From positions 1-34,298 of the forward strand of contig DXJA01000471.1 of the NCBI GenBank assembly GCA_019056875.1: a stretch of DNA of 34,298 nucleotides, given 5' to 3'. The translations under genes and the position numbers were made by a program. A model generated the notes under the pieces. The model did not search any database and was not told where the DNA came from. It worked only from the letters and a program-made list of their open reading frames with translations. This stretch comes from Candidatus Jordarchaeum madagascarense. Lineage in GTDB: Archaea > Asgardarchaeota > Jordiarchaeia > Jordiarchaeales > Jordiarchaeaceae. Every line of letters starts with the position of its first letter. Positions within the stretch are counted from its first letter, which is position 1. Shown one piece after another: positions 2,506-31,927 of the stretch.

Positions 2506-2521
2506 TTTTGTCTAACGCTCC

Positions 2522-3097: not shown

Positions 3098-3303
3098 TTC
3101 TTTCAACTCCTATTTACTTTCTTCAGTTATTCTTATACAATATTATTTAAACACGTGAATAGGATAATTCCCAATTCCAAAGGGGGAACTAAGTTAACCC
3201 CGTTCTTCCCTTCAACTCTCATACTTGAGATAGCCACTTAAACACCACCCGTCTCATTGACCAATAATTTGCAAGAATCATCACGTATCCATTCACCCTC
3301 ATC

Positions 3304-4272: not shown

Positions 4273-4342
4273 ACAACCTCCGAAAGAAATTTCAGGGAAG
4301 CGAATTCTTTAGCTAAAGTCCTGTTTTTAGCAGTATAGGTTT

Positions 4343-16655: not shown

Positions 16656-17579
16656 GTGCCGACTGAAAAATTAAAAGCCAAAGATGTGGAGATGGAAGCG
16701 GCCAGAGAAAAGTTCAAAGCCAAAAGAGTAGAGGTTGAAACAAAAATTGGGGAAGATGAGGAAAGAAAGGAACTCATTGAATCTTACGTTGAGTGGGGTG
16801 ATCGAAACGCCAAACTCTTCAGCCTCTTGAACGTAGCCAAGTTCATGGTCGTAGCCACCGTCCTTTTGCTATCCTACATTGTATCATCAATATACTTTCC
16901 ATACCCCTACTGGGTAATTCTAACCATTGTATGCACCTACATCTCAATGTGCGCAGTTAACCCAAAGTTTGCATCCCCCATTCTCAAACTGCTAAGCCAT
17001 GGAAAGTGGCCCAACAAAGAAAAATTCTCCCTGGTAGATCCACTACAGGACGTAACCTTCTTCTTCATGGGCGGAGAGGATTCAGTTCTAATAATGCGTG
17101 ACAGCTACAAGCTAGCCGCCTACGCCATGATGAAGGTGGAAGAAATCCCCCTCAGCATAAGAGGCAGCTTCAACTACTTCTTCCGCACACTCTACCTTCA
17201 AAAAGTCCCAGTAATCTACTTCGTGGAAAGCAGCCCGGTTTCTGAGAGAACAGTAAGATTCCTTCCGAACCTAGAGGAAGGCAGTCGTCAATCCATTTCA
17301 AAGAGGGACAAATCGAGGAGAAAAACCTGGCTCTGGGGAGGAGGAGGCGTCTGGACAACCCGCATAGTTCTGGGAACCAAAAAAGAAATAATAGCCCCAG
17401 TACGTCTCGACCACTCAATTGGGAAACTTGTTGAAGAAGTGAAAATGAACGCGTTTTCACTAGCCACAGCATTTGAGAACTCTTATCCTCACTGCAAAAT
17501 CGAACCCTTGGTGGGTGAATCCCTGCTAGATGCTACTAAGGCCATGCTAACCGGTGGTGGAGTGTCCCATTTTTTCTAA
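16656..17579 (+). CDS. membrane protein (two TM helices plus a soluble domain), possible N-terminal half of a split VirB4/HerA-like protein
   Basis: GTG start with GGAGG (16640-16644) 11 nt upstream. Hydrophobic segment FMVVATVLLLSYIVSSIYFPYPYWVILTIVCTYISMCAV. It ends 5 nt before the NTPase ORF. Confidence 0.6.
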   Translation: MPTEKLKAKDVEMEAAREKFKAKRVEVETKIGEDEERKELIESYVEWGDRNAKLFSLLNVAKFMVVATVLLLSYIVSSIYFPYPYWVILTIVCTYISMCAVNPKFASPILKLLSHGKWPNKEKFSLVDPLQDVTFFFMGGEDSVLIMRDSYKLAAYAMMKVEEIPLSIRGSFNYFFRTLYLQKVPVIYFVESSPVSERTVRFLPNLEEGSRQSISKRDKSRRKTWLWGGGGVWTTRIVLGTKKEIIAPVRLDHSIGKLVEEVKMNAFSLATAFENSYPHCKIEPLVGESLLDATKAMLTGGGVSHFF

Positions 17580-17584
17580 CCGGG

Positions 17585-19153
17585 TTGGAGGCGACTCCAA
17601 CCTTCGTAGACCTCGCAACCTTCATGACCAAAGGCTTAACGGTGAAACCAGCCGCCGAGTTCGTCAGCCCCTCTGTGGAGTACGATTTCAAACTGGGTAA
17701 GGTGATCGAAACCGAGGTTTACAAGGAAGACGTGGACGTTGGATTAAAAATCGAACACCTACACCGCGGTATCATGGTGGCTGGGGGAAGCCAAGAGGAA
17801 CGCACCGCTACGAATCTAAGCATAATATTTGAGGCTTCCAGATTTGCGTGGAATTACTTGATAGTAGACACGGGGAAACGGTTCAGAAGAATGGTGAATA
17901 TGAATCCTGAGACAAGGGTGTATCCCAGCAAGAGTATTTGTATAAATCCGCTGGACCCCGAGGATTCGAGCGTTTCCGAATACATTTCCCTCCTACTCAG
18001 ACTATTCCAGGTCCTGTGGAATCTCACCGATAGGCAGAGCATAGATTTGGGTGAGGCTCTAAGGAGCATCTATGAGAACCAGGACAGAGGCAGTGCTCCC
18101 ACTCTGGAGGATTTGAGGAGCGCTTTGATTAATCAGAGTTCGTCAAAGCTGAGGACTGCTCAGGAGAGAAGTGGAATAGAGGGGGTGATACGTAGCTTGA
18201 ACGGTCTGGTGTTATCGGAAGAGTCCCCCACAATAAACGGGCGTTCCACAATGCCCTTCAGAGACCTCCTGACAAACCCCACTATTATAGAGATTTCCCG
18301 AAATGATCAAATGTTCTCAAGCTTCTTCAAAGGAATGATGATAGTGAAGGCCCTAGCAACTGACAAGGGTAGGTATTCAATTTTTCTGGATGATGCGGAG
18401 GATGTTTTCAAAAACATTAAATACGGTAGAAGAACGGAGCAAGTTTACTTCCAGGAATCCCTAACGCGATGGGTGGAAAATCTGAAAAATATGAAAGTGG
18501 GGTTACACATCTCAACCCCTCTACCCCGACTAATCTACAATCCCATCCAGCCAATGATAGAAACCCAAATAGTCCACAAACTCGTTTCAAAAGAAGACAT
18601 CAACATAGTAGGAGAACTCATGGGGCTAGAGGAAAACGCACCGGGAATACACTCACTCAAGAGAGAACGCCTCTACCAAGCCACCTACTTCAAGTACCTC
18701 AAAGAGGACGAAGCGCTATTCCACCGACCAGACCTACCGACAGGATTCCCAATAGCCTTGCATTATCCCACAGTTGTGTACTCAAACACGCCCTCGGACC
18801 AAGAGATAAGAACAAGACTGGAAGAACTTTACCCCCCTCAGAACGTAAATCTCGTAGAAAGTTTACCATCCACGATGCTTGAGAGAGATTTCAAAAACGA
18901 AACGGAGGGCGCCGTAAAAATACTGGAACTACTCCATGAATATCCTCAACTCTCCCTCACAAACATAGTACAAAGCCTAAAAATAGAAGTCGACCCGGAA
19001 AAAATAAGGTATCTCATAGAGAAGCTCAAAGACTTGGAATATTTGAAGGAAACTCTAGAAGTCTGGAAGTCAAAAACCAAACGAGTATACTCTCTAACAC
19101 TGAAAGGGGAACAGGCACTAAAAGAATACACCGAATCTACACAGTTATACTAA
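17585..19153 (+). CDS. HerA/VirB4/FtsK-like NTPase-fold protein with degenerate P-loop and C-terminal winged helix
   Basis: The layout HRGIMVAGGSQEERTATNLSIIFE...NYLIVDTGKRF matches the P-loop-helix-strand pattern of HerA/VirB4-type ATPases, but GSQEERT replaces GSGKS/T. A Walker-B-like YSIFLDDAED lies at 18374-18403. The C-terminus, LSLTNIVQSLKIEVDPEKIRYLIEKLKDLEYLK...YSLTLKG, looks like a wHTH. The start codon is uncertain (TTG 17585). Confidence 0.6.
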   Translation: MEATPTFVDLATFMTKGLTVKPAAEFVSPSVEYDFKLGKVIETEVYKEDVDVGLKIEHLHRGIMVAGGSQEERTATNLSIIFEASRFAWNYLIVDTGKRFRRMVNMNPETRVYPSKSICINPLDPEDSSVSEYISLLLRLFQVLWNLTDRQSIDLGEALRSIYENQDRGSAPTLEDLRSALINQSSSKLRTAQERSGIEGVIRSLNGLVLSEESPTINGRSTMPFRDLLTNPTIIEISRNDQMFSSFFKGMMIVKALATDKGRYSIFLDDAEDVFKNIKYGRRTEQVYFQESLTRWVENLKNMKVGLHISTPLPRLIYNPIQPMIETQIVHKLVSKEDINIVGELMGLEENAPGIHSLKRERLYQATYFKYLKEDEALFHRPDLPTGFPIALHYPTVVYSNTPSDQEIRTRLEELYPPQNVNLVESLPSTMLERDFKNETEGAVKILELLHEYPQLSLTNIVQSLKIEVDPEKIRYLIEKLKDLEYLKETLEVWKSKTKRVYSLTLKGEQALKEYTESTQLY

Positions 19154-19354: not shown

Positions 19355-20560
19355 ATGCCTGACTCCGTTGAGGGGTGGATTGCCAAGGGCGATTATGCCC
19401 TATACCGAAAACGAAGGTATGAGGAATCCTTAGAGTGCTACGATAAAGCCCTGAAGATAGAGCCGGAGTGCGTGGTGGCTTGGGTTAGTAAGGGTGTGGC
19501 ACTAAGCAGTTTAGAACGGCTTAAGGAGGCTGTACAGTGCTACGACAAAGCCCTGAAGATAGAGTCAGAGTATGTTGATGCTTGGCTCAACAAGTTCTTG
19601 GACTTACAAAAACTGGGCAGAACCAAGGAAGCGGTAAACTGCTTCGATGAAGCGATGCAGCTAATGAGAGAGGGAAGGGGACTCCGAATCAACAAACGCA
19701 TAACCCTAATCAAAAATGACTCCCCGGATTACCACCTGATCTCCCAATGGCTACTGGAATTAAGACCGGGCAACAAGAACACGGTGGGGGACAGGTGCCT
19801 AGATCTGCTCAAAAACGAAAAGTTCGAAGAAGCCTTGGAGTGCTATAACAAGCGGGTAGAGTTGGAACCGGAAAACGAGGAGCTTTGGAACAATCGGGGC
19901 GTGGCTCTGCACACTTTGAGAAAAACTGAGCAGGCTCTAGAATCCTACAATAGGGCGCTGTGCATCAAACCGGACTATGAGGAAGCCCTGTTCAATAAGG
20001 GCCTAGCCCTCCTTGAGGGACTGTGGCTTGAGGAAGCAATAGAATGTTTTAACAAGGTTTTGTATGACAACCCGGATGATGTGCAGGCTCTTTATCAGAA
20101 AGGCTTTGCTCTGTGCAATTTGTGTAGGAGGGAGGAAGCCCTGCAGTGCTACGATAAAGCGCTGCAGATAAAACCGAGTGATGGTTATGTTTGGGTTATG
20201 AGGGGGGTGGTTCTTTTAAATTTGGGGCGAGGCGAAGAAGCATTAGAGTGCTATGATTGGGTGTTGCAGACGAATCCAAAGAATGTGTACGCTTTGAACG
20301 GTAAGGGTGTGGCTCTTTACCTCTCAGGGCGGAGCGAGGAGGCTTTGGAGTTCTACGATAAAGCCCTGAAGATAGAGACAAATATGGCGGCGCTCTGGCT
20401 CAACAAAAGTATTGCTCTTCGAAGCTTGGGAAGAATGGAGGAGACTGAGAGGTGTGAAAGTGAGGCCCATAGGCGGGACCCTGACCATGATTTTTCACAG
20501 GAATATTTCCAAAAAGTCTACAACCTCGCCCGGAAAGAGAAAGGGGAGACGGTGAAATAA
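19355..20560 (+). CDS. tetratricopeptide (TPR) repeat protein
   Basis: It contains many 34-aa repeats of the type EEALECYDKALKIEPExxxAWxxKGxAL. A GGTGA SD lies 6 nt upstream of the ATG. Confidence 0.9.
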   Translation: MPDSVEGWIAKGDYALYRKRRYEESLECYDKALKIEPECVVAWVSKGVALSSLERLKEAVQCYDKALKIESEYVDAWLNKFLDLQKLGRTKEAVNCFDEAMQLMREGRGLRINKRITLIKNDSPDYHLISQWLLELRPGNKNTVGDRCLDLLKNEKFEEALECYNKRVELEPENEELWNNRGVALHTLRKTEQALESYNRALCIKPDYEEALFNKGLALLEGLWLEEAIECFNKVLYDNPDDVQALYQKGFALCNLCRREEALQCYDKALQIKPSDGYVWVMRGVVLLNLGRGEEALECYDWVLQTNPKNVYALNGKGVALYLSGRSEEALEFYDKALKIETNMAALWLNKSIALRSLGRMEETERCESEAHRRDPDHDFSQEYFQKVYNLARKEKGETVK

Positions 20561-20561
20561 G

Positions 20562-21035
20562 TTGGAAAACAGGGATAAAAAGACGCGGAAACTGATAGAA
20601 GAAGTGAAGAAGGATCTTGAGTCTAGCACCTGCTGCACCCTTGGAGAGAGGGAGGATTACGGGGAAGATTGGCTAAACGTATACCGGCTAGAGGAAAAAA
20701 AATTCTCCGAGCTTTATGTTCCCATAGAGATTTACTTCAACCTTCGGGAAAAGACCATCTCTCTTCGCTTCGAACTTTCCCTCGGCCTACTCGATTTAGG
20801 AAAAAACAATAATATTAAGAAGATAGCAAACTGGCTCCGAGAATACGCCGACTACATAGAAGCAAAGGAAAAGGAAATACTGGAACTAGGATACTACACG
20901 GAGCAAACGGTGATCGATGGCATACACCCCATCTACTTCTTCTACCGCAAAGATTTCCCTCTAGACCAAGTTGGGGAATTAGTCAAGGAAGCGAAAAACC
21001 TCATAGAGAATGTTTGGATCATCGGCGTATTATAG
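20562..21035 (+). CDS. standalone X-domain protein (copy A of the five-member paralog family)
   Basis: The TTG start is 1 nt after the TPR stop, with GGTGA at 20551-20555. It shares the blocks CTL, YVPIEIYF, ISLRFELSLGL, IANWLREYA, ILELGY, IDGIH and YFFYRKD with the four other copies. Confidence 0.75.
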   Translation: MENRDKKTRKLIEEVKKDLESSTCCTLGEREDYGEDWLNVYRLEEKKFSELYVPIEIYFNLREKTISLRFELSLGLLDLGKNNNIKKIANWLREYADYIEAKEKEILELGYYTEQTVIDGIHPIYFFYRKDFPLDQVGELVKEAKNLIENVWIIGVL

Positions 21036-21134
21036 ACATAAGAAGACTAAAAAATAAGGATGAGGAGGTTTTATAATGAGGGAATCCGTCTTTTCCGCAG
21101 AGACTGTGAAAATGGTGAAATCGGATAAGGATAC

Positions 21135-21296
21135 TTAAGGCTTGATAAAGGCACTATTATTATACAAGGTTACTGCTATATAGATGTTAACAATCATAGT
21201 TGCCACAACACCAATTAACACTACCAGCGTTTTACTCCTAGAACGAATCTTTCTCCTAATAAGGAAATCTGGCATTCTAACCTTTTTCTCATCCAT
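21135..21296 (-). CDS. possible small single-pass membrane protein (53 aa)
   Basis: Hand translation gives MDEKKVRMPDFLIRRKIRSRSKTLVVLIGVVATMIVNIYIAVTLYNNSAFIKP, a basic N-terminus followed by one hydrophobic helix. GAGGGG lies just upstream of the ATG. It is below the ORF-track size cutoff. Confidence 0.3.
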   Translation of the reverse strand: MDEKKVRMPDFLIRRKIRSRSKTLVVLIGVVATMIVNIYIAVTLYNNSAFIKP

Positions 21297-21359
21297 ATCC
21301 CCTCAATCATACATCCGGAATCTTCCACATCACCTAATTTACTTTTTGAAACAGTTGAT

Positions 21360-21685
21360 CTAAATCAGAATTTTGGAGCCTGATTTACGGTTTAAAGGGT
21401 AGTCACTTCTTATGGTGACTTTTTCAAAAATCCATTCAAGCCTCCCCTCTTCATCAAATTTTGCCATTTTTTCTTTTACTATGACTGAGGGGAATTTATT
21501 TTTTCTCCATTCAGAAACTGTTTGTTCCCAGTATTCTTTGCATTTTTTTATTTCTCTCGGACTAAAACCTTTTTTGCCAACCGGGACTTTGTATGCACAT
21601 TATTATGGCAATTAAGACATAGTACCGCAAGATTCTCTAGTCGATTGTCTGACCGATTTCCATTAATATGATGGATTGAAGAAAG
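21360..21685 (-). pseudogene. HNH endonuclease remnant (N-terminally truncated, frameshifted)
   Basis: Minus-strand translation of 21685-21548 gives LSSIHHINGNRSDNRLENLAVLCLNCHNNVHTKSRLAKK, the HNH core (HH..N....N..LC..CH). An in-frame TGA lies immediately upstream at 21686-21688 and there is no start codon. The frame stops at 21548-21550, but another frame, overlapping around the A6 run (plus-strand T run 21570-21575), stays open to 21360 and reads KKGFSPREIKKCKEYWEQTVSEWRKNKF... Confidence 0.6.
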
Positions 21686-21969
21686 TCAAAGAACTTCTCT
21701 CCTTTCCAGATCAATTTCCTGATGAAATATTTAGATATCTAGATATATCACGTGATAAATTTGCTAGTGAACTTAAGAAGCTGTGGGAAAGGAGTGTAAC
21801 AGAAGTCAAAAATATTGAAGGGATCCAAGGTGGCAACTTGAAGTCGCTTTATGAATATTTCGAGGATTTGATTGAATTGCATAAACAATTGACAACTCTT
21901 AGAAGCAATACAGTCTCACTAAAAGAAAAAATTCAGCAATATGCGAAGATCAAGGAGGCTTTTCCATGA
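21676..21969 (+). CDS. hypothetical small helical protein (first gene of the three-gene cassette)
   Basis: 97-aa ORF with only a TTG start available and no convincing SD. Its 3' end carries the AAGGAGG SD (21952-21958) of the next gene and overlaps it (ATGA at 21966-21969). Its 5' end abuts and overlaps the HNH remnant on the opposite strand. Confidence 0.45.
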   Translation: MKKVKELLSFPDQFPDEIFRYLDISRDKFASELKKLWERSVTEVKNIEGIQGGNLKSLYEYFEDLIELHKQLTTLRSNTVSLKEKIQQYAKIKEAFP

Positions 21970-23099
21970 CAATCGAATTGTTAGGGGCGGTTCAAGAGAA
22001 GACAAAAATGTCAGACGACTTAAAGTATCGATTTGAGTTACTATTAACAAGACTTGAGGAAAGCAGAAAAAAGGGAATGATTATCTCTCTTCCTGAATTC
22101 GAAGCATATGGTTGGAGAAATCTTGGAGAATTCTTAGATAGGTTGGACGATGCAGTAAATACACCACTTATTGAAGAAGCCAGAAGCATTTTGGACAAAA
22201 TCGGAGTATCTCCCCAGACCCTTGACAAATTGAAATCCGTACTTTCGGTGAGAAGGGAAGGGCTGATAACAATTCTGAAGGAAATGAGCAAAGAATTCAA
22301 GAAGATTCAGAACGAAAGACTTCAGAACAGAGCTAGGGAGAATATAACAAAATTCGTGGATGAAGGTAGATGGGATGAATTAGTTGTAAGGGCAAGCAAC
22401 TGGCAGAAACTAGAAGAAGACCTAGGCTCACTGCTGAAAGGGATAACAAAAAACACATACCTATATAATACTGTGTTTGAGAAGGCTCTAGAGGAAGGCC
22501 CTGGAACTGGCATAATTGATAAACTCAAAGAAGTTGAAGTAAAAGCCTCACGTGTTGGCAGCGAAGCTCTGAGAGCGCGTATAAAATTTGAAGTAGCTCA
22601 AAGTCAAGCCAATCCTTTAGGCAGCGTAGAAGATGATCTGAACCAAATCGCGAAGAAGAAAGAGGAACTAAGACAACTTATGGGTGAGGAAGTTAATATT
22701 AACAAACTCATAGAAAGGAATGAACCATTATCAAAGATGATTGATAAGCTAAATGAGGATTATACGCGGGTAAAAGGCCTTTTTGACACGCAGTATCGAA
22801 CAATTGAGAAACTCTTGCAAACACACAACAATCTTACTACTATTCTCAAAAAGATATCAAAGGCTATGCCTCTTGAAATAAGTCTTAAGCGATTAAAAGA
22901 GTTTGGCGATGAACTTGAAGGAGAGATTAAAAAACTAGAGAGCGAGCTTGAGAAAACGCTTACAGCAGATGCGAGGAGATTCATTGAGAACCTGCTTGAA
23001 GGAAAATTACCAGATGGTTGGGATGAAAAGAAGATAGTTAGTACTCTCAAGGAAATTCTCGATAAGAAAATTTCGTTTGAAGTTAAGTTGAGGATGTGA
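21966..23099 (+). CDS. K/E-rich coiled-coil protein
   Basis: 377-aa ORF with AAGGAGG 7 nt upstream of the ATG. Heptad-like, charge-rich sequence runs throughout. There is no Walker A or other catalytic motif. Confidence 0.7.
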   Translation: MTIELLGAVQEKTKMSDDLKYRFELLLTRLEESRKKGMIISLPEFEAYGWRNLGEFLDRLDDAVNTPLIEEARSILDKIGVSPQTLDKLKSVLSVRREGLITILKEMSKEFKKIQNERLQNRARENITKFVDEGRWDELVVRASNWQKLEEDLGSLLKGITKNTYLYNTVFEKALEEGPGTGIIDKLKEVEVKASRVGSEALRARIKFEVAQSQANPLGSVEDDLNQIAKKKEELRQLMGEEVNINKLIERNEPLSKMIDKLNEDYTRVKGLFDTQYRTIEKLLQTHNNLTTILKKISKAMPLEISLKRLKEFGDELEGEIKKLESELEKTLTADARRFIENLLEGKLPDGWDEKKIVSTLKEILDKKISFEVKLRM

Positions 23100-23101
23100 C
23101 T

Positions 23102-23530
23102 ATGAAAGAAAAGGACGAATTTAAGTTGAGCCGAATTCTCAGCCGAATGCAAGGAGAAAGCGAGGCAATTTTTCCGTGGGGAAAAGCCAATATGGAAGTA
23201 AAATATATCAATTATTCTGCTGGGGGAAAGGGATGCCCTGATTCTCTACTTGTTCTTAACATCAGGATGCCTGTATTAGATCAGCAAGTTTCAGTTCAAG
23301 TTCCTGTACTTGTCGAAGCCGAGAAAGCAGGAATGGATGCTGCAATGATGGATCTAAAGAACTTTTGCGAACGCTCCATGAAAGGAGCGTTGGAGGGTGG
23401 TGGTAGTTCTTTTATTGAGATTCCTATGCTTGTAGTTACAGAAAAACCTAAACGTGGTGAAAAAGAGGTGCGAAAAGAATTGAGCGTAGTCTTCAAAATT
23501 CGCGAGATAAAGGTCGAGAATGGAAAATAA
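23102..23530 (+). CDS. small protein with a PD-(D/E)xK-like (restriction-endonuclease-fold-like) motif pattern
   Basis: The ATG at 23102 has GAGGA (23090-23094) 7 nt upstream and lies 2 nt after the preceding stop. The order GESEA ... CPDSLLVLNI ... VPVLVEAEKAG resembles the E / PD / ExK order of PD-(D/E)xK nucleases, although EAEK is not a strict ExK. Confidence 0.55.
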   Translation: MKEKDEFKLSRILSRMQGESEAIFPWGKANMEVKYINYSAGGKGCPDSLLVLNIRMPVLDQQVSVQVPVLVEAEKAGMDAAMMDLKNFCERSMKGALEGGGSSFIEIPMLVVTEKPKRGEKEVRKELSVVFKIREIKVENGK

Positions 23531-23569
23531 AACTTGTTTTTAGGATGATTTCCATTTTCGTAACTCATC

Positions 23570-23611
23570 GCGGTTTGTAACGAACGGTACTAGAAAACCT
23601 ACCGAAACCGC
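23570..23611 (+). other. imperfect stem-loop downstream of the cassette
   Basis: gcggttt (23570-23576) pairs with aaaccgc (23605-23611). An inner stem pairs cggta (23585-23589) with taccg (23600-23604) around a 10-nt loop. A T5 run at 23537-23541 precedes it, just after the stop codon. Confidence 0.5.
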
Positions 23612-23703
23612 TACTGTTCAAACCTATAGTCGCTAGGAAGACAAAGATGTAAATGAAGGTGCAGATTTTAGTATCACTTGAGGGCTATGAACTATGTTAG
23701 GGT

Positions 23704-24105
23704 TCAATCCAAGCTTAAGAAGTTGTATAGATTTTCGTAAGATGATGGGGGCTTGAAGTTGCATATCTTTGCTTGGTTAAATACGAAGCTGAAGAAATCC
23801 TGTAGGATAGGATAGAGCAGGGCTTCCAGTTCCTCGTTGGTAGGTTCTTCACCTCCTTCTATGAGTTTTTCTCTAATGATTTCTTTCATATTTTCAACCG
23901 CATCTCTCGGGTGCGTCCATCCATGACGCGTACTAGTTTCGTTTAGGAAACCCAACCACATTAAATCGTCATATAATCCTCTTCCTAACTTGTAACACCT
24001 TCCGTATTTCTCGTCTAAAGCTTTTGTGATTCGTTCGGCTATTACTCCAATTTTCTGACGTATCGCCACAGTTGCTGCTCCTGACCACCTTGCCATTTTT
24101 ATCAC
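23704..24105 (-). CDS. hypothetical protein
   Basis: 133-aa ORF lying 71 nt downstream of the 794-aa HEAT-X gene on the same strand. I recognise no motif. Confidence 0.5.
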   Translation of the reverse strand: MIKMARWSGAATVAIRQKIGVIAERITKALDEKYGRCYKLGRGLYDDLMWLGFLNETSTRHGWTHPRDAVENMKEIIREKLIEGGEEPTNEELEALLYPILQDFFSFVFNQAKICNFKPPSSYENLYNFLSLD

Positions 24106-24176
24106 CTCTCAAGAATCACGCCAATGTTTTCTTTAATTGGATGAAGCTCCTCCAAAATGCAGATTGGTTTGGACAT

Positions 24177-26561
24177 CTAGTAGATTTCTTCTACAACTTT
24201 TTTCAGGTCTTTTATGAGTTTATCTATTTTTTTGGGAGGGTAATTTTTCTGGTAGTGGAAGTTGAGGTGGTGTATTCCGTCAATACTTTTGTCTTCAAGT
24301 TGGAGTCCCAGTTCGCGACGTGTTTTAGCGTCTTTTCTGATTTGGGCTGCATATTCCCTCAACCAGTTGGCTATTCCCTTCACGGTTTCGTCTCCATCCA
24401 CATCATGTAGGCCACACCACAGTTCGCAGCACAGGGAAATAACTTCTATCTCCAAGTCTAGTTCAATTTCGATTGGCAGGTAATATTCGGAGGTTCTTTT
24501 CTTCAAGGAGTAAATGTGTAGCCACTCGTCCAAGCACTCCTGCTCGTCGCCCAGTTCAAAATCTGTACTTGTTTCGAAGACCTTTTTCAGCGTTTCCGTC
24601 ATCTCTTTTTCCCTTAATTCTCTTAATGTATCCTCTGCGGATTCTATAACGTAATCGTTTCCACAGTTATCTATAACTTTGATGAGCGCTTCTTTTACCC
24701 CCTCTCCTCCTATTTCCCCAAGGGCATAAACCGCAGCTGACATGACATGCCTCCACTGGCACTCTTCCTCCTCGTCTTCATCACAAAACTCATCCTCTTC
24801 CTCATAATCCTGTTCCCCTTCTTCGTACCAATCGCCTTTTAGGATTTGTATGAGCGGTTTCAGAGCTCTCTCATCTTTCAAGTCTCCTAGGGCACTTGCT
24901 GCCTCTTCACGAACACAATTATATTTATCCTTTAGTGCCTTTATGAGTGGTTCAACCGCTCGTGCATCTTTTATCTTTCCAAGGGCGCCCACGGCCTTAC
25001 TTCGAACGTTTTTACTCTCATCCTTTAGTGCCTTTATGAGTGGTTCCACGGCTCCCGAATACTTCATTTTTCCTAGAGCGTGTGCTGCTCCTCCTCGAAT
25101 CCGTTCATCCTCATTTTTTAGTGCTTGCATAAGGGGTTCGATTGCTGGTTCCCCTATTCTTACCATGGCGTCTGCTGTGCCCCATAGAACGCCCAAACTT
25201 TCATCCTTTTTTAGAAATTCTATCAGTAGTGTTATCGCTGGCTCTCCAACTTCATCTGCTAGCCTGATCCATTTCTCCTTTCCAACAAGGTAATAGGTGT
25301 ATTCAATATTGTTTTTGGGTTTCCAGTCCATCTTGTCGAGTGCCTCTGCTGCTTCTTTTCGAACTTCCTTATGTTCGTCCTCTAAAACGTGGATGAGGGG
25401 TTCTACTGCTCTCCTGTCACCTATTTTTCCAAGAGTTTTTATGGCTCCTTCTCGCACGCATCTATTTTTGTCCTTTAGCGATTGTATGAGGGGTTCCACT
25501 GCGGGCTCTCCTACTTCCAGTAAATCGTCCCACTTTTGCAGTGCGATTAGGTGATAGGCTCGCTCGGTGCCGTCTTTGGGTTTCCAGCTCATTCTCTCAA
25601 GTGCCTTCGCCGCATTCTCTCTAATATCCTTGTTTTCATCTTTTAATAGGTGTATGAGGGGTTGTACCGCGGGTTCTCCGATTTCATTTAGCTTTTCCCA
25701 TTTTTGCTTTGCAATCAGGTAATACGCTTCTTCGGTTTTGTTTTTGGGTTTCCAGCCAATCTTCTCAAGTGACTCTGCCGCGTCGCGTTTAATCTGGCAA
25801 TCTTTATCCTGTAAATACTGAGTAAGTAGCTCCACTATCCCTTCAAAGCCTATTTTTACAAGAGTCTCTGCTGCAGACCTTCGAACAAGGCTACTCTCAT
25901 CCCTCAAAGCCTGTGTGAGTGGTTCCACCGCTCTCCCATCACCTAAGTATCCTAGTGACTCCGCTGCATCCCATCGAACATATCCATCTACATCTTTTAG
26001 GGCTTCTAAGAGTGGTTCCACCGCCTGTACATTTTTCAGCGTTCCCAGAGCACGGGCTGCTTGCGCCCGAACGTATCCACTCGTGTTTTTTAGTGCTTGT
26101 ATCAGGACATCCACAGCCCTTTCATCACCTATACGCCCCAAGCCGAATATGGCGACCTCTAACATCTCCTCATCTTTATCGTCTTTCTCTATGGTTTTGA
26201 TAAGTGGTTCCACTGCTCTTCTATCTTTTATGTCTCCTAGAGCTTGTGCTGCTTTAACCCGAACTTCGTGTTCCTCATCTTTCTCCAGAGTTTTGATGAG
26301 TGGCTCCACGGCTATTTCACTCTTTGCTTCTCCCAGAGCGAGTGCTGCCGCGGCTCTGACTCCCCCGTCTTCATCTTTTAGGATCTTTAGGAGTGCGTCC
26401 ACTGCGGGTTTACCTATCTCCCCTAGGGCAAACGCCGCATTGATTCGAAGTTCCTTATTGTTTTTCAGGATATCTGTAAGACCTTTAACATCTTTCTGAG
26501 CTTTCATTCTTTCCACATGACCCTGTGGTGAATCCCAATATAGTGAACCTATCTTCAACAC
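24177..26561 (-). CDS. HEAT-repeat (PBS-lyase type) protein with C-terminal X domain (copy B)
   Basis: About 16 repeats of the type AVEPLIxxLKDxxxxVRxxAAxALGxIGD. Three repeats are interleaved with W-K-P-K...Y(Y/H)L(I/V)...(K/Q)KW segments. An acidic Cys-containing linker follows. The last 141 aa (24177-24602) align with the other X copies. Confidence 0.9.
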   Translation of the reverse strand: MLKIGSLYWDSPQGHVERMKAQKDVKGLTDILKNNKELRINAAFALGEIGKPAVDALLKILKDEDGGVRAAAALALGEAKSEIAVEPLIKTLEKDEEHEVRVKAAQALGDIKDRRAVEPLIKTIEKDDKDEEMLEVAIFGLGRIGDERAVDVLIQALKNTSGYVRAQAARALGTLKNVQAVEPLLEALKDVDGYVRWDAAESLGYLGDGRAVEPLTQALRDESSLVRRSAAETLVKIGFEGIVELLTQYLQDKDCQIKRDAAESLEKIGWKPKNKTEEAYYLIAKQKWEKLNEIGEPAVQPLIHLLKDENKDIRENAAKALERMSWKPKDGTERAYHLIALQKWDDLLEVGEPAVEPLIQSLKDKNRCVREGAIKTLGKIGDRRAVEPLIHVLEDEHKEVRKEAAEALDKMDWKPKNNIEYTYYLVGKEKWIRLADEVGEPAITLLIEFLKKDESLGVLWGTADAMVRIGEPAIEPLMQALKNEDERIRGGAAHALGKMKYSGAVEPLIKALKDESKNVRSKAVGALGKIKDARAVEPLIKALKDKYNCVREEAASALGDLKDERALKPLIQILKGDWYEEGEQDYEEEDEFCDEDEEEECQWRHVMSAAVYALGEIGGEGVKEALIKVIDNCGNDYVIESAEDTLRELREKEMTETLKKVFETSTDFELGDEQECLDEWLHIYSLKKRTSEYYLPIEIELDLEIEVISLCCELWCGLHDVDGDETVKGIANWLREYAAQIRKDAKTRRELGLQLEDKSIDGIHHLNFHYQKNYPPKKIDKLIKDLKKVVEEIY
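24603..26504 (-). repeat. in-frame tandem HEAT-repeat coding array (about 93-nt period)
   Basis: Recurrent AVEPLI / VRxxAAxALG units are seen in the translation. The DNA shows recurring gagtggttccac-type strings. Confidence 0.8.
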
Positions 26562-26638
26562 CTCCTCACTCTACTGCTCGATAATTTTGTGTAAAGCAGT
26601 ATTATTATTTGAAACTGTTTTTCAAGTTTTAGTTTCTC

Positions 26639-27274
26639 TCAATACCAAATTGTGATGGGTGACCAGACTTCTTCCACGAGTTTCTTCGAGAATTTTAGGA
26701 AGTCTTCCAGTTCTTTGTAGGAGTAGCACTTCTCGTAGCGGAAGTAGATGTGGTGTATGCCGTCAACATTCGACTCCTCTAGGTCGAATCCTAGTTCCAG
26801 TATTTGCTGCTCGCTTGCCTCCATGTAGTCCGCATACTTCTCGAACCAGTCTGCTACTTTCTCGGGGGTCTCATCCTCACCCGCTTCATGCAAGCCTAAT
26901 GATAATTCAAAACGCAAACAGATAGCCTCACTCCGAGGGTGAAAGCAAACCTCGATGGGAACATAAAATCCTGAGAGTTTTTTACTCTCAAACCGATAAA
27001 CTTGCGACCGCCTGCTGCAGGTATCCTCTCTTTCCAGAGTGCAATCAGCATCAGCTTCAAGACCCTTTCTAACAGCATCTATTACTTTCCGAGTGTTCTC
27101 GTCCAGATTCTCTTCTGAATCTACTCCCTGTTCCTCGTCTTCTTCTTCCTCGTCCTCGTAGTCCTCGTCTTCCTCGTAATCTTCCTCTTCTTCGTATTCT
27201 TCTGCTTCCTCTTCCTCGTCTTCCTCTCGGTTTTCACCTGATTCTGAGTCTTTTTTTGTTTCTTTCTTTTTCAT
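26639..27274 (-). CDS. polyacidic-tail plus X-domain protein (copy C)
   Basis: N-terminal D/E/Y-rich run (EEDEEEEAEEYEEEEDYEEDEDYEDEEEEDEE). The last 153 aa (26639-27100) contain DCTL, YVPIEVCF, ICLRFELSLGL, VADWFEKYADYME, ILELGF, VDGIHHIYFRYEK and LVEEVW. I prefer ATG 27274; the longest ORF starts at GTG 27283. Confidence 0.8.
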   Translation of the reverse strand: MKKKETKKDSESGENREEDEEEEAEEYEEEEDYEEDEDYEDEEEEDEEQGVDSEENLDENTRKVIDAVRKGLEADADCTLEREDTCSRRSQVYRFESKKLSGFYVPIEVCFHPRSEAICLRFELSLGLHEAGEDETPEKVADWFEKYADYMEASEQQILELGFDLEESNVDGIHHIYFRYEKCYSYKELEDFLKFSKKLVEEVWSPITIWY

Positions 27275-27350
27275 TATAATCACTACCTTTTTGGATTGTG
27301 TGTATTCTCAAATTTTGAGACGCTGCCTAATTTTTTTCAGTTTTCAGCTT

Positions 27351-29024
27351 TTATTCCCAATCCCAATCGTATTCCTCGTCGTGTAAAAACTGGGGTGACT
27401 GATAGATTTCTTCGGTGATTTTTTTCAGATCCTTCACCAGCTTTTCCACCTGGTCGAAGGAGTATAGTCTATAGTAACGGTAGTAGATGTAGTCTATGTC
27501 CTTGATGACTGGGTCTTCGGATTCGAATCTCATTTCCCGAAGTAGCCTATCAGCCCCTTCTATCAGTTCCGCATGTTTCATTAGCCAGCCAGCTACTCCT
27601 TTCAGGCTTTTATTATTTTTTTCTGGTCCGAACAGCCCACAGAATAGTTGGCAGTGCAGGAAGATGTCCTCGTCTTCCGAGTTGAACTCCATCTTGATTG
27701 GCAGGTAGGATTTGGAGCTTTCCCTCTCCAAGCGGATGTGTAGATAACCTTCTTCATCGTCGTACAAATATCGTAGAGTGCAACCCGCATTAGTTTTCAG
27801 GCCTTTTTTCAAGGCTTGTAACACTTCCTCTGCTCTCTCGGATTGCAGGATATCTTTTGCAACCTCCTGAACGCCACAATACGGATCCTTTAGAGCCTCG
27901 ATTAGGGCTTTCTTTACTCTGTCGTCTTTCATTTCGCTAAGAGAAATTGCGGCTTCCTCCCGAACCTGGCCTTCCTTATCCTCTTTTAGAACACGTATCA
28001 GGGGCTCTATTACCCTTGCATCATTTATGCGACCTAGTGCGGATACTGCATTCTGCCGAACGAAGAGATCTTTATCTCTCAGTGCTTCAATAAGGGGTTC
28101 CACGACACTAACATCCTTTATTTTTCCTAGAGCCTCTACAGCATCCCTTTGAACCCACTCATTCTCATCCTTTAGAAGTTGTATTAGTGGTTCTACTGCC
28201 CGCTTATCCCCTATCTTTCCCAACGCTTCGGCTGCTTCCCTTCGCACATCATCTTTCGCATCATTTAGAATTTGTATTAGCGGCTCCACAGCCCTTGTAT
28301 CTCTTATAACCCCAAGGGCCCAAGAGGCCGCTTCTTTGAGTTTTGAGCTTTTTTCAGTTAGAGCTTGTATTAGTGGTTCTACTGCCTGCTTATCTCTTAT
28401 CTTTCCTAGAGCTATGGCAATTTCGCTTCGTGTAACCCAATCCCGCTGGTTCGTATCTTTCATAGTTTGTATTAGTGGTTCCGCCGCTCGTTTATCCCCT
28501 ATTTTTCCCAGTGCTTCTGCAGCATCTTTTCGAAGATAATTATCCTCTCTTAGAATCCGTATTAGTGGTTCCACCGCCCGCTCATCTCCTATCTCTCCCA
28601 GCACGTTTACCGCTGCTTCTCGAACGGAGTCTTCTTCATCATTTAGGGCTTGTATTAGTGGTTCCACGGCTCTCTCATCTTTCATCTTTTCGAGAGTCCA
28701 TATTGTCTGGCTTCGAATAAACTTGTCATCACTCTTCAGGGTTTGAATTAGGGGTTCTACTGCTCTCTTATCTCCTATTTCGCGTAGAGCCAGTATAACG
28801 AGATATTGAACATCCTTCGATTTTTCCTCTAGAGCTTTTGCTAGATGTTCTACTGCGGGTCTACCCATCTCTTCAAGAGCATGTAACGCCTTTAATCCCA
28901 CATCCGAGTTTTTCTCATGCCTTAAGACCTTTACCAGGCTTTCCGCATCTCTCTTTATTTCCATTCGGTAAACATCATCCAACGTGAAATTGAAATTCGA
29001 ATCCGGTGTTCCCATCTTTAGCAT
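27351..29024 (-). CDS. HEAT-repeat (PBS-lyase type) protein with C-terminal X domain (copy D)
   Basis: About 11 AVEPLIQxL...VRxxAAEALGKIGD repeats. The last 160 aa (27351-27833) carry GCTL, YLPIKMEF, IFLHCQLFCGL, VAGWLMKHAELIE, IKDIDYIYYRYYR and ITEEIY. GAGGAG abuts the first ATG (29024). The second ATG (29015) has 9-nt spacing. Confidence 0.9.
   Translation of the reverse strand: MLKMGTPDSNFNFTLDDVYRMEIKRDAESLVKVLRHEKNSDVGLKALHALEEMGRPAVEHLAKALEEKSKDVQYLVILALREIGDKRAVEPLIQTLKSDDKFIRSQTIWTLEKMKDERAVEPLIQALNDEEDSVREAAVNVLGEIGDERAVEPLIRILREDNYLRKDAAEALGKIGDKRAAEPLIQTMKDTNQRDWVTRSEIAIALGKIRDKQAVEPLIQALTEKSSKLKEAASWALGVIRDTRAVEPLIQILNDAKDDVRREAAEALGKIGDKRAVEPLIQLLKDENEWVQRDAVEALGKIKDVSVVEPLIEALRDKDLFVRQNAVSALGRINDARVIEPLIRVLKEDKEGQVREEAAISLSEMKDDRVKKALIEALKDPYCGVQEVAKDILQSERAEEVLQALKKGLKTNAGCTLRYLYDDEEGYLHIRLERESSKSYLPIKMEFNSEDEDIFLHCQLFCGLFGPEKNNKSLKGVAGWLMKHAELIEGADRLLREMRFESEDPVIKDIDYIYYRYYRLYSFDQVEKLVKDLKKITEEIYQSPQFLHDEEYDWDWE
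27840..28952 (-). repeat. in-frame tandem HEAT-repeat coding array with high nucleotide-level identity
   Basis: The 14-mer tgtattagtggttc occurs exactly at 28180, 28366, 28468 and 28651, with close variants at 28273 and 28558. The spacings are 93, 93, 102, 90 and 93 nt. Confidence 0.85.
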
Positions 29025-29136
29025 CTCCTCACAGGATTTGCCCGTAAGTTGTTGCGATTAATGGTGTGGTTTGTAACTTCTTTCTCACCCTGTTTTGGTT
29101 TTTTTCATTTTTGAACCAAATAATCATGTTGATTAC

Positions 29137-29640
29137 TCAGTCTATGTATGATAACTCCTCAATGTCTTTCGGGAGTTCCTCTGTTTGGTCGAAGGAGTAG
29201 TCTTTCCGATAGTAGAAATCCATATCGCGTATGCCATCAATTTTGGATCCGTCCTCTCGGAATCCTAGTTCCAGTACCTTCTGCTCCGTTTCCTCCATGT
29301 AGTTTGCGTGCGCTTTGAACCAGCGTGCTAGTTCCTTTGCGCTCTCTTCGTATGCTTCAGTGATGCCGAAGGAAAGTTGGTAACGTAGGGAGATGGTTCC
29401 TGTGGGGTTGAAAATAATTTTGACAGGGACCTCCCAATCGAACTTCTTTCCCATCATCATCACCTGATAGACCGGTAATGATTCATTGTCGGTATCAGCG
29501 TCTTCTTCCAGTGTGCATCCAATGTTTTCTTCCAGACTCTTTTTAACAGAGTCCACCACTTCCCAGACCTTTTTTCTTAATTTTGCCTCTTTTTCCTCTT
29601 TACCTAATTTCGTAGCTCTTTTCGACTTTTTCCCTTTCAA
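29137..29640 (-). CDS. standalone X-domain protein (copy E)
   Basis: K-rich N-terminus, then GCTLEED, VPVKIIF, ISLRYQLSFGI, LARWFKAHANYMEE, VLELGF, IDGIRDMDFYYRKDY. TTG start with GGAG 11 nt upstream. Confidence 0.8.
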   Translation of the reverse strand: MKGKKSKRATKLGKEEKEAKLRKKVWEVVDSVKKSLEENIGCTLEEDADTDNESLPVYQVMMMGKKFDWEVPVKIIFNPTGTISLRYQLSFGITEAYEESAKELARWFKAHANYMEETEQKVLELGFREDGSKIDGIRDMDFYYRKDYSFDQTEELPKDIEELSYID

Positions 29641-29692
29641 TTCTTTCGCTACTCCTTTTTTGATTAAATGTATTTTCTGTAAATTTGAGGCA

Positions 29693-30466
29693 TCATTTAG
29701 TTTCTTGTTTTCCGCTTTTATTCTCCTCGAAAGGTTTTTTTGTTTCTTGTTTATCTTTTTGTGGAATGAAATTTTCTTGGATTAGCCTCTTGGCTTCTTC
29801 GCTATATCTAGTTTTTATCTTAGTTTTTTGCTTGGTGTATTTAATCGTGTCTTTGAACGCTTCAAGCGATTCATGATTGTACTTGATGTGTTTTAGCCGT
29901 ACTTCTTCAAAATAAGAAGCTTCAACCTTTTCCTCAAAATTGATTATTTCTGATTCATAATCTGTGTGAACGTGGCGATAATGAGAAATCTTGGAATTTT
30001 CACAGGCTTCCTCCAGTGTCATTTTTCTCTTCATAGCCAATTGGAGAATTAGGCTGTCCATTGGTGGAGCCACATTCTCTTTGCAACGGGGGCAGTAAAA
30101 TGAGAGACGTTGCATCATTTCTTCGCGTTTCCTGTTTAGGTAGATTTCCCGCCTCTCAATCTCCTCTATTGAAAATTTTGGAAGCTTTTTGATTCTTTGA
30201 TAGTTCTTTGCAATATCCTCTGTAATGACTAATTTATTTACGGTCTCCGTATTATCGGCGTTTGGCGGGTCTTTTGATTTAACTAGGTTTAGTTTTACTG
30301 CTTCCAACAGTTGGTTTGGAGTCATCCTAAAATCGATGGGCGCAGTTGTAAAGCTTACCCACTGAGGATAATTTTTCCCATACTCCACAATCGTAGTCTT
30401 ATGTCTTTTTAGGTGGCTTGGAAGGTATTGGACTTGCTCCCCACAGATTCTACATTTATCACTCAT
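29693..30466 (-). CDS. zinc-finger protein (C2H2-like plus CxxC...HxxHxH), K/E-rich
   Basis: The N-terminal CRICGEQVQYLPSHLKRH has a Cx2C-x9-H-x3-H pattern. A second site is CPRCKENV ... HYRHVH. The ATG has GGAGTGA 6 nt upstream. Confidence 0.65.
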   Translation of the reverse strand: MSDKCRICGEQVQYLPSHLKRHKTTIVEYGKNYPQWVSFTTAPIDFRMTPNQLLEAVKLNLVKSKDPPNADNTETVNKLVITEDIAKNYQRIKKLPKFSIEEIERREIYLNRKREEMMQRLSFYCPRCKENVAPPMDSLILQLAMKRKMTLEEACENSKISHYRHVHTDYESEIINFEEKVEASYFEEVRLKHIKYNHESLEAFKDTIKYTKQKTKIKTRYSEEAKRLIQENFIPQKDKQETKKPFEENKSGKQETK

Positions 30467-30503
30467 TACTATTCACTCCGCTCTTTCTCAAAGGCAATTA
30501 TTT

Positions 30504-30818
30504 TCATCGTCTTTTGATACTTTGATTAGGGGTGGCCAATTCTTCGCCTCTTATTTTTTCCAAAGCCCAAACCACTCTTTCTTGAACGCTTGAATTTTTA
30601 TCTTTTAAAGCCTCATTCAGTGGTTCCACCGCTCTCAAATCCCCAAGTTCACCTAGAGCCCCAGCCGCGCCCCATCGCACATACTCGTTTTCATCCTTTA
30701 GTGCTTTAATGAGCCGTTCCATTATAACTGACCAGTCTTTATTATACTTTGTTAATAGTTCAATATTCCTATGTGCTTCTTTTACTTCGGCTTTCTTTGT
30801 GGAGAGTTCAATTCGCAT
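30504..30818 (-). CDS. mini HEAT-repeat protein (two repeats)
   Basis: [51 protein letters not shown] is the same repeat type as in the large HEAT proteins. The ATG at 30818 has GGAGG 7 nt upstream. The longest ORF starts at TTG 30824. Confidence 0.75.
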
Positions 30819-30848
30819 TCCCAAACCTCCTTAAATATTCTGGGAGCT

Positions 30849-31796
30849 TTATCCCTTCGTTTTTCTCTTGAGTCCCTTATTCCGCTGATTTTCGGAGAAG
30901 GGTTTTCTAAAATTTTTTTCAACTCTATTTTTCTCTGATTCCAGAAGTTGTCTCAGCTCACTATCCTCAACATTTTGGCTTCCGCTATTAACTTCAAATC
31001 CTGACTCGTCACCTAGATCATCGTCACTGGGTTGAGAAGTGTCTTCCCTCCTACTGCTTATTCCATAGGCTTTCTCTATCTTTTCCAATCCTCGATTTTC
31101 TCTTTGAAAAATCGCTGATCTGTAATTGTTAGCACGGGGGTTACTTGGATATTGAGGATTAGCACTGTGACTGTGACTGTTACCGTTGATGGTGCCTTGA
31201 GGGTTGAGGTATGCTTCGTTTGATTGGTGTCGTGTTTTCATAAGCCAATATAATTTATTGAGTAGTGCTATGCCGATTATTGAGGGGATCAAGACCAGAG
31301 CTACTATTTCGAAGGGGAACGGTTGCACATTCAGGTTGGGCACCAGATAAATGCTCTCCGCGTAAAGGTAGAATACAATAATTGCGGTGATGGAGACTGT
31401 GGATATTGGTGCCAGTCTTAGGCTCCACTTCATTTTTCTTTTGGCCAGTACAACTACGGTTGCCGTTATCATGGTTGAGGAGAATAGGCTGACCAAATGC
31501 TTTTGCACGGTGTGTACTTCCGTCCAGCCGGGAAGGGCACTGTAAAACACTAGGTATAGGCCAGAGAAGGATAATATTGTTAGTACAAATCGCCAGTGGT
31601 TTCTTAAAAAGTTGTAAGTGGATCTTAGTAACCAGTGCATAAATCGTACCTGGTCTCTCAGCATATAGTAGAGCAGAAAATCGTGCTTAAAGTAAAGGGC
31701 ACACATACAAAAAATGTAAACCAAGATAATTACTACAACTATGGCGAAAACGGTACCCAGTGTGGAAGTAATATTTGAAAAAAAGCTTTCAAACAT
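30849..31796 (-). CDS. polytopic membrane protein with disordered C-terminal tail
   Basis: About six hydrophobic helices are followed by a polar, charged tail. The ATG at 31796 has GGAGG (31805-31809) 8 nt upstream. The longest ORF starts at TTG 31811. Confidence 0.65.
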   Translation of the reverse strand: MFESFFSNITSTLGTVFAIVVVIILVYIFCMCALYFKHDFLLYYMLRDQVRFMHWLLRSTYNFLRNHWRFVLTILSFSGLYLVFYSALPGWTEVHTVQKHLVSLFSSTMITATVVVLAKRKMKWSLRLAPISTVSITAIIVFYLYAESIYLVPNLNVQPFPFEIVALVLIPSIIGIALLNKLYWLMKTRHQSNEAYLNPQGTINGNSHSHSANPQYPSNPRANNYRSAIFQRENRGLEKIEKAYGISSRREDTSQPSDDDLGDESGFEVNSGSQNVEDSELRQLLESEKNRVEKNFRKPFSENQRNKGLKRKTKG

Positions 31797-31927
31797 TCCA
31801 ACATCCTCCAAATTCTAATTCATTGAAGACCATATTTTTCCGGAAACATTCTACCAGAAATTCAATAAGTGAATAAAAAAGGGGATATTGTGCGGGAGAC
31901 CCCTTAGAAGATATCTGTTTGGTGCTA

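Follow-up and report, generated by a model that had tools for sequence, protein, structure and literature searches.

Domain X, a narrowly distributed Asgard protein family associated with HEAT-repeat solenoids in Candidatus Jordarchaeum madagascarense

What is the protein domain of ~140 residues that occurs five times within a single gene island of Candidatus Jordarchaeum madagascarense, and what does its association with HEAT-repeat proteins signify? The domain, here referred to as X, is encoded in contig DXJA01000471.1 (assembly GCA_019056875.1), of which positions 1 to 34,298 were analyzed; this whole stretch of 34,298 nucleotides (nt) is termed the window. An original prediction, made from the DNA sequence, had proposed that X is a five-copy paralogous family without an assignable relationship, that it is coupled to HEAT and TPR alpha-solenoid scaffolds, that it might be either a module docking onto or capping such scaffolds or a tandem array of variable binders like those of immunity or adaptor proteins, and that its fold loosely resembles small chaperone-like alpha/beta folds. 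X is virtually certain to be a real domain family, and its functional coupling to HEAT proteins is highly probable. What it does is less secure: we tentatively favor, at somewhat below even chances, a non-enzymatic alpha/beta domain for protein binding and dimerization, of which free and HEAT-fused copies would heterodimerize into a binding complex composed of a solenoid and an acidic tail.

The window contains exactly five X copies within a gene island of ~10 kbp, at the coordinates originally proposed. Three are free-standing: copy A (20562..21035, plus strand), with 157 amino acids (aa) and the namesake of the A-type copies described below; copy C (X at nt 26639-27100, minus strand), which lies behind a polyacidic N-terminus in a 214-aa open reading frame (ORF; 26639..27283); and copy E (29137..29640, minus strand; 167 aa). 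The other two, both on the minus strand and both matched by a hidden Markov model (HMM) of the family, form the C-termini of HEAT proteins, with copy B (nt 24177-24602) making up the last ~141 aa of a 794-aa protein (24177..26561; HMM match to aa 653-797 of the open frame), and copy D (nt 27351-27833) completing a 557-aa protein (27351..29024). The five copies align over ~140 columns, their whole length, at 32-47% identity to copy A and 24-49% identity pairwise, and all 10 of the 10 pairs are significant by BLASTP (E 1e-6 to 1e-42, scaled to a database of 1e8 residues). Copies A and C also share 73% DNA identity across 128 nt (DNA repeat I1). Searching all six frames of the window with the HMM, which was built from 15 members, returns the same five copies (E 1e-52 to 1e-69) and no sixth, the next best match having an E-value of 0.37.

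The proteins that carry copies B and D are HEAT-repeat proteins of the PBS-lyase type, with tandem HEAT_2/HEAT_PBS repeats that exceed the gathering score; Pfam HEAT_2, for which the cut-off is 27.7 bits, matches the 794-aa protein with 413 bits (E 1.6e-126) and the 557-aa protein with 376 bits (E 9.4e-115). The 401-aa protein encoded directly before copy A (19355..20560, plus strand), with a 1-nt gap between its stop and the start of copy A, is a TPR protein (Pfam TPR_1 E 1.3e-59, 196 bits; TPR_2 163 bits; above the gathering score). The HEAT and TPR assignments are thus confirmed, as is the coupling of X to HEAT scaffolds, with HEAT-X fusions recurring in Lokiarchaeia and Jordarchaeaceae and a reversed fusion (P0013; X, acidic linker, HEAT), independent of HEAT-X, present in a second Jordarchaeaceae genome, GCA_038871495.1. 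The carriers differ widely in how many HEAT repeats they have (307 to 794 aa) while the C-terminal module stays, and X always lies terminal to the solenoid, on its C-terminal side in B, D, and the fusion of a related locus (L002, below), and on its N-terminal side in P0013. A small two-repeat HEAT protein of 106 aa (30504..30824, minus strand; HEAT_2 E 4.5e-14, 53 bits, cut-off 27.7) is also kept as a neighbor of X genes, with orthologues at 68% identity in locus L001 and 55% in locus L008, and in the latter its gene is directly upstream of an X gene.

The 794-aa protein has an unusual repeat structure of its own, with three copies of an insert unit of ~56-87 residues (WKPKNKTEEAYYLIAKQKWEKLNEIGEPAV...; window 25260-25840, minus strand) interrupting the canonical 31-residue (93-nt) HEAT units. 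These inserts correspond to DNA repeats D8/D9, which are spaced 261 and 168 nt apart, and the same type of unit is present in the L008 orthologue.

Comparison of all window ORFs with the loci encoding X homologues shows that the genes are arranged as pairs. At all four loci that hold a C-terminal HEAT-X fusion, a free X gene is followed by the fusion gene on the same strand. Two of these pairs are in the window, both on the minus strand: E then D, separated by 112 nt, and C then B, separated by 77 nt. The third is in L002, from a Jordarchaeaceae metagenome-assembled genome (MAG; GCA_038825615.1), where an acidic-tailed free X (P0007) precedes a 307-aa HEAT+X protein (1277-2200) that is 51% identical to aa 498-794 of B. 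The fourth is in L008, a Lokiarchaeia-like metagenome contig, and is organized as a free X (P0011), a 629-aa HEAT ORF (2424-4313; 42% identical to the 794-aa B protein), and a 100-aa X ORF (4303-4605) corresponding to the C-terminal two-thirds of X, with 61% identity to B. A fifth locus, L011, has an A-type X followed by the start of a HEAT gene at the contig end.

The junction in L008 (4200-4610) is itself irregular: the HEAT ORF stops just inside helix a1 of X and the 100-aa ORF restarts at strand b3, so that ~37 residues are missing. The arrangement resembles a fusion that a deletion or frameshift has broken, either a real deletion or pseudogene or an assembly error.

The free and fused copies form separate groups in a neighbor-joining tree and identity matrix of 15 X domains. 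The fused group contains B, the L002 fusion, and the L008 fragment at ~60% identity, with D as their sister, and its members share a C.L.CGL motif, D included, where the free copies have LRFELSLGL instead. The free group, set apart from the fused copies, comprises the A-type copies, C with P0011, P0007, and P0008. Orthologues can be followed across Asgard classes at 50-61% identity; those of copy C are P0011 in L008 (55-56% identity) and P0007 in L002 (50-51%), each directly upstream of a HEAT-X gene, and those of copy A are found at 62-72% identity on five Lokiarchaeia contigs (L001, L006, L011, L012, and L013). Since free and fused X fall into separate groups that each have cross-class orthologues, the split between them is older than the divergence of Lokiarchaeia from Jordarchaeia, and the two genes have stayed adjacent since. 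The description of the locus as a five-copy array is therefore correct in its number of copies but not as an unstructured array, as the island holds two pairs of a free X and a HEAT-X gene plus one more free copy, drawn from separate and old clades.

The position of copy A behind a TPR gene is unique to the window. At the five Lokiarchaeia loci the A-type orthologue occupies the equivalent site, after a flank gene of ~520 aa, and is directly preceded by an 83-aa zinc-ribbon gene with a CPHCG motif (L001:9733-9993, given as 83-89 aa; L011:360-611; L012:923-1174; L013:203-454), of which tblastn finds no copy in the window; the 401-aa TPR gene takes its place. A TPR gene followed by X had been proposed as a recurrent architecture, and this does not hold, the related loci carrying the zinc-ribbon gene instead. 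Nor do we take the TPR-X arrangement for a split fusion gene, because the TPR stop and the copy A start are out of frame with each other and a zinc-ribbon gene occupies this site in the relatives. The zinc-ribbon protein may be the usual partner of A-type X.

Sequence searches place X in no known family, in keeping with its initial designation as unassigned. Scans against Pfam, NCBIfam, PHROGs, and PADLOC provide no credible family for any X copy, and when 13 members are compared with Pfam at E-values up to 10, no family is common to more than two of them and no chaperone family appears. Weak matches to YEATS (E 0.065), phrog_14286 (E 0.007), RRM_5, and others are each confined to a single member and were rejected as chance. 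Profile searches of PDB sequences with X return short chance matches only, and the candidates SNF5, TM1526, and T4 endonuclease V were dismissed, having E-values of 0.006 or worse over short stretches.

The family is also very small. An exhaustive HMMER scan of 1.84 billion representative proteins gives 10 matches, of which ~9 are true X clusters, placing X among the rarest families measured; P0015, a 4060-aa eukaryotic repeat protein matched in 15 stretches (E 1e-9), was set aside as an artefact of repeats or composition. Searching 5.8 billion clusters by word index, first with 5 X queries and then with 15, adds no members, and four pattern scans for further X loci, run twice on GTDB representative genomes and twice on JGI metagenome contigs, yield no confirmed relative. 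The named matches belong without exception to Lokiarchaeia or Jordarchaeaceae, two groups of the Asgard kingdom Promethearchaeati, and the known X sequences number ~15 in all. As judged from these searches, X is a real yet extremely narrow family, so far seen in only a few Asgard archaea. We know of no earlier description of its context, with a HEAT fusion, a paired free partner, and a distribution restricted to Asgard archaea.

Acidic segments are a common feature of X proteins. The X domains themselves (141-167 aa) are acidic, with isoelectric points (pI) of 4.8-5.0, and copy C has in addition a 55-aa polyacidic N-terminal tail (nt 27092-27256, minus strand). Copy D ends in the C-terminal tail DEEYDWDWE, and P0007, P0008, and P0013 have acidic tails or linkers next to X. 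In B, a 31-residue acidic/aromatic loop (GDWYEEGEQDYEEEDEFCDEDEEEECQW; 24744..24836, minus strand) lies within the last HEAT repeats, and equivalent charged or acidic inserts are present in the L002 and L008 orthologues.

The invariant positions of X are mostly hydrophobic or small (L27, P54, L68, L72, G75, A89, A96, I121, and Y128), and an alignment of family members reveals no catalytic signature among its conserved positions. The DGIHH motif is not invariant, having been lost in A, D, E, and P0013. This pattern of conserved hydrophobic and small residues, with DGIHH not kept, argues for a structural or binding domain rather than an enzyme.

Structural models provide a lead to the fold of X. 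AlphaFold2 models copy B with a predicted local distance difference test (pLDDT) score of 87.1 and a predicted template modeling (pTM) score of 0.80, and copy A, from a 10-sequence alignment, with a pLDDT of 72.6. X is predicted to consist of three helices and an antiparallel sheet, arranged as a1-b1-b2-b3-b4-a2-b5-b6-a3 in copy B, and the copy A model agrees except that b5 is missing. For model A, the best Foldseek match in the PDB is 3cxj, an orphan structure from Methanothermobacter (E 9.3e-3, probability 1.00, template modeling [TM] scores of 0.49/0.53), followed by SigE, ExsC, CesT, SycH, and the YbjN-like 2plg (TM 0.27-0.46), and by SchA and VecA. For model B, TM exceeds 0.4 only for Escherichia coli YbjN (6vu7; 0.44, probability 0.80) and AvrPphF-ORF1 (1s28; 0.42). 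Across the two models, the PDB matches with TM above 0.4 are thus only 3cxj, YbjN 6vu7, and chaperones of type III secretion systems (T3SS), at TM 0.42-0.53. In BFVD, the best match is gp314 of Bacillus phage G (E 1.5e-3, TM 0.43), an uncharacterized protein and hence uninformative.

The fold common to YbjN and the T3SS chaperones is a-b-b-b-a-b-b-a, dimerizes through helix a2, and holds partner proteins (PMC3575483, a study of DR1245 that cites 3cxj once). It has been named the TY-chaperone superfamily by the Aravind laboratory, with very divergent members added by modeling (PMC9503650). The suggestion that X has a small chaperone-like alpha/beta fold is supported to the extent that YbjN and the T3SS chaperones are its sole neighbors above TM 0.4, but the match is weak. 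A TY-chaperone-like fold is therefore the best structural lead and not an established membership, with about equal chances of being right or wrong. By sequence, X is an undescribed family, and its structure would at most make it a diverged variant of a fold class already known.

A few of the structural matches could be taken to indicate a different role, in which X, as an ACT- or VOC-like domain, senses small molecules and regulates the HEAT scaffold. The top Foldseek rows by E-value for model B include glyoxalase I and the ACT regulatory subunit of aspartate kinase, but these have TM scores of 0.22-0.28 and root-mean-square deviations above 12 A, and, with the kinase rows that accompany them, all below TM 0.3, they are noise. 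With no conserved polar ligand-binding residues in X, and the His-His of DGIHH lost in the four members noted above, ligand sensing is very improbable.

A stronger competitor is that X is a new fold unrelated to TY-chaperones, acting as a C-terminal cap or homo-oligomerization domain of HEAT solenoids, with the free copies as competitors in, or regulators of, this oligomerization. The constant location of X at an end of the solenoid fits a cap, and neither sequence nor profiles link X to chaperones; no Foldseek match in PDB or BFVD has an E-value as low as 1e-3, and TM stays below 0.5 for the confident model. Nonetheless, two independent models both give TY-chaperones as the sole matches above TM 0.4, and the free copies constitute their own clade across Asgard classes and have acidic tails of their own, which suggests something more than a regulatory remnant. 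We regard a new-fold cap as rather doubtful.

In the heterodimer reading that we tentatively prefer, X comes in two old subtypes, one free-standing and often with a polyacidic or aromatic tail, and the other fused C-terminally to a PBS-lyase-type HEAT solenoid. The free X would heterodimerize with the X domain of the adjacent HEAT-X protein, as do the paralogous chaperone subunits SycN and YscB, and the heterodimer would join a HEAT scaffold of variable length to an acidic tail. The product would be a two-subunit complex that binds or escorts a client, possibly a basic one; that the client abounds in basic residues can plausibly be guessed by analogy with eukaryotic solenoid-plus-acidic-loop escorts. 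The window would then encode two such pairs, E with D and C with B, together with a third free copy, A, after the TPR protein. Members of the closest fold class are obligate dimers, and in some of them the two subunits are paralogues with adjoining genes (SycN/YscB, PDB 1XKP).

A more far-reaching variant holds that X is a fold invented within the Asgard archaea as a heterodimerization clasp, with the HEAT solenoid contributed by one subunit and the polyacidic/aromatic tail by the other, and that it escorts basic or unfolded clients. The complexes would then be archaeal counterparts of eukaryotic solenoid-plus-acidic-loop escorts, and the five copies would reflect client diversification. We consider this unlikely.

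Several observations weigh against heterodimers of a chaperone-like domain. On the structural side, no Foldseek match reaches E 1e-3 and TM scores of 0.42-0.53 are marginal; chaperone scores are lower for the better model, that of copy B, than for the poorer one, that of copy A; and X, although its elements follow the order of the canonical chaperone fold, carries an additional strand before a2 (four versus three). Alignment of an X profile with E. coli YbjN by hhalign gives a probability of 0.1, in a weak test with a single target sequence, and Pfam YbjN matches none of 13 X sequences even at an E-value of 10. On the genomic side, the A-type free copies of four relatives adjoin a zinc-ribbon gene and, L011 excepted, have no HEAT-X gene beside them, and P0008, a separate free X on another contig (L004) of GCA_038871495.1, is without a HEAT neighbor. 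Because the HEAT parts, too, are acidic (net charge -12 and -28), a simple electrostatic contact between tail and solenoid is unlikely. Finally, with ~15 X sequences in total, arguments from conservation are thin.

The class I T3SS chaperones (CesT, SigE, ExsC, SycH, and AvrPphF-ORF1) resemble X in being acidic proteins of ~15 kDa with three helices and an antiparallel sheet, and no other PDB class exceeds TM 0.4 with both X models. They differ in having three strands before a2 and no sequence or profile similarity to X, and they serve the injectisome, which is absent from the archaea in which X is found. We know of no HEAT fusions or polyacidic tails among T3SS chaperones, whereas X has both. 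The YbjN family (PF10722; 6vu7, Synechococcus 2plg, and Deinococcus DR1245) and 3cxj are non-secretion members of the chaperone fold, proposed to be general protein stabilizers or partners; to our knowledge the YbjN proteins stand alone, whereas X is partly fused.

Two further comparisons are looser. The TY-Chap1-3 predicted chaperone domains of ADP-ribose conflict systems are newly recognized and highly divergent, were assigned to the TY-chaperone fold by modeling, and include duplicated and permuted versions, but they are encoded in bacterial or phage ARG-centred operons (PMC9503650). X has no such neighbors. Some eukaryotic solenoid proteins that bear an acidic loop or tail escort basic clients, as in the importin-beta HEAT-8 acidic loop, Syo1, Acl4, and ANP32. 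The resemblance of X proteins to these is a functional analogy, both combining an alpha-solenoid (HEAT/TPR) with a long acidic tract, and B has an acidic loop within a HEAT repeat; the eukaryotic escorts have no X-like domain, and no homology is claimed.

Asgard archaea are the closest prokaryotic relatives of eukaryotes, and in X they possess a domain linked with HEAT solenoids and polyacidic tracts through fusions, which occur in either order, and through a gene pair kept across two of their classes. If free and fused copies do heterodimerize, this would be a new way to build modular solenoid-based binding complexes, and either a chaperone-like fold put to an unusual purpose or an entirely new fold. 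The analysis brought up nothing that connects X with a eukaryotic signature system or a known pathway, and the significance is moderate.

The X genes sit in a variable island between conserved flanks. The window is syntenic with L001, a contig of MAG GCA_041862095.1 (labeled Candidatus Lokiarchaeia at NCBI), with RadA 89% identical between them. The left flank consists of a 307-aa membrane protein gene (16656-17579, plus strand) and a 522-aa gene (17585-19153, plus strand), a conserved pair at 84-87% identity to L001, and the right flank codes for the small HEAT protein, a 320-aa membrane protein, and a 774-aa surface protein, at 65-68% identity. Between the flanks, the window has the TPR gene, X-A, a three-gene operon, a 133-aa gene, HEAT-X B, acidic-X C, HEAT-X D, X-E, and a gene for a zinc-finger-like protein, and L001 has the zinc-ribbon gene, one A-type X, and four unrelated genes.

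An island of this kind could be a biological-conflict locus, with the X copies as tandem variable binders akin to immunity proteins or antitoxins and the HEAT and TPR proteins as sensor scaffolds. The complete difference between the window and L001 in the region between flanks that are 64-89% identical is consistent with this, as are a decayed HNH endonuclease remnant within the island and the combination of tandem paralogues with repeat scaffolds, which is typical of such systems; PADLOC HEAT/TPR models also match the carrier proteins. The PADLOC matches, however, cover generic repeat regions only, with none for any X copy, and scans with Pfam, NCBIfam, PHROGs, and PADLOC reveal no toxin, nuclease, protease, NTPase, or other effector domain in the island genes. 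No viral or plasmid signature was seen, and X orthologues that are 50-61% identical between Asgard classes, with gene order kept, are conserved rather than hypervariable. The immunity-array interpretation raised initially is thus not sustained in an island with no toxin, NTPase, or defense gene, and we consider a conflict locus improbable.

The HNH remnant (window ~21360-21690, minus strand) reads IHHINGNRSDNRLENLAVLCLNCHNNVHTKS and then, after a frameshift, continues into GFSPREIKKCKEYWEQTVSEW..., and is located in an AT-rich gap of 640 bp after copy A. It hints at past mobile-element activity in the island. Scans of the window for tRNA genes and Rfam families find nothing, and there are no flanking att-like repeats.

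Copies B to E belong to a co-directional minus-strand cluster in the order membrane protein, small HEAT, zinc-finger-like protein, E, D, C, and B, with gaps of 24-116 nt. It is headed by the 320-aa membrane protein gene (30849..31811, minus strand), which has counterparts in equivalent positions in L001 (65% identity) and L008 (49%). Between the small HEAT gene and copy E is a gene for a basic 257-aa protein (29693..30466, minus strand; pI 9.1) with two CxxC...HxxxH zinc-finger-like motifs, for which there is no match in Pfam, NCBIfam, PHROGs, or PADLOC and no homologue in the related loci. Copy A is separated from the B-E cluster by three genes with 4-nt overlaps (21676-23530, plus strand), coding for proteins of 97 aa, 377 aa (coiled-coil-rich by eye), and 144 aa, and by the convergent 133-aa gene (23704-24105, minus strand). 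These four genes also have no match in the same four collections and no homologue in the related loci.

In the left flank, the 522-aa protein has a C-terminal hint of a winged helix and is weakly matched by the NCBIfam model of CedD, a DNA-translocating ATPase (E 7.5e-7; 28 bits, cut-off 600), although by eye the P-loop region of the protein seems degenerate. Elsewhere the window encodes, besides RadA, FEN1 and a Hel308-like helicase, and a small Ras/Arf-like GTPase (192 aa) that adjoins a 194-aa protein, roadblock/LC7-like by eye (1927-3106, minus strand). Pairing of a small GTPase with a roadblock protein is typical of Asgard genomes.

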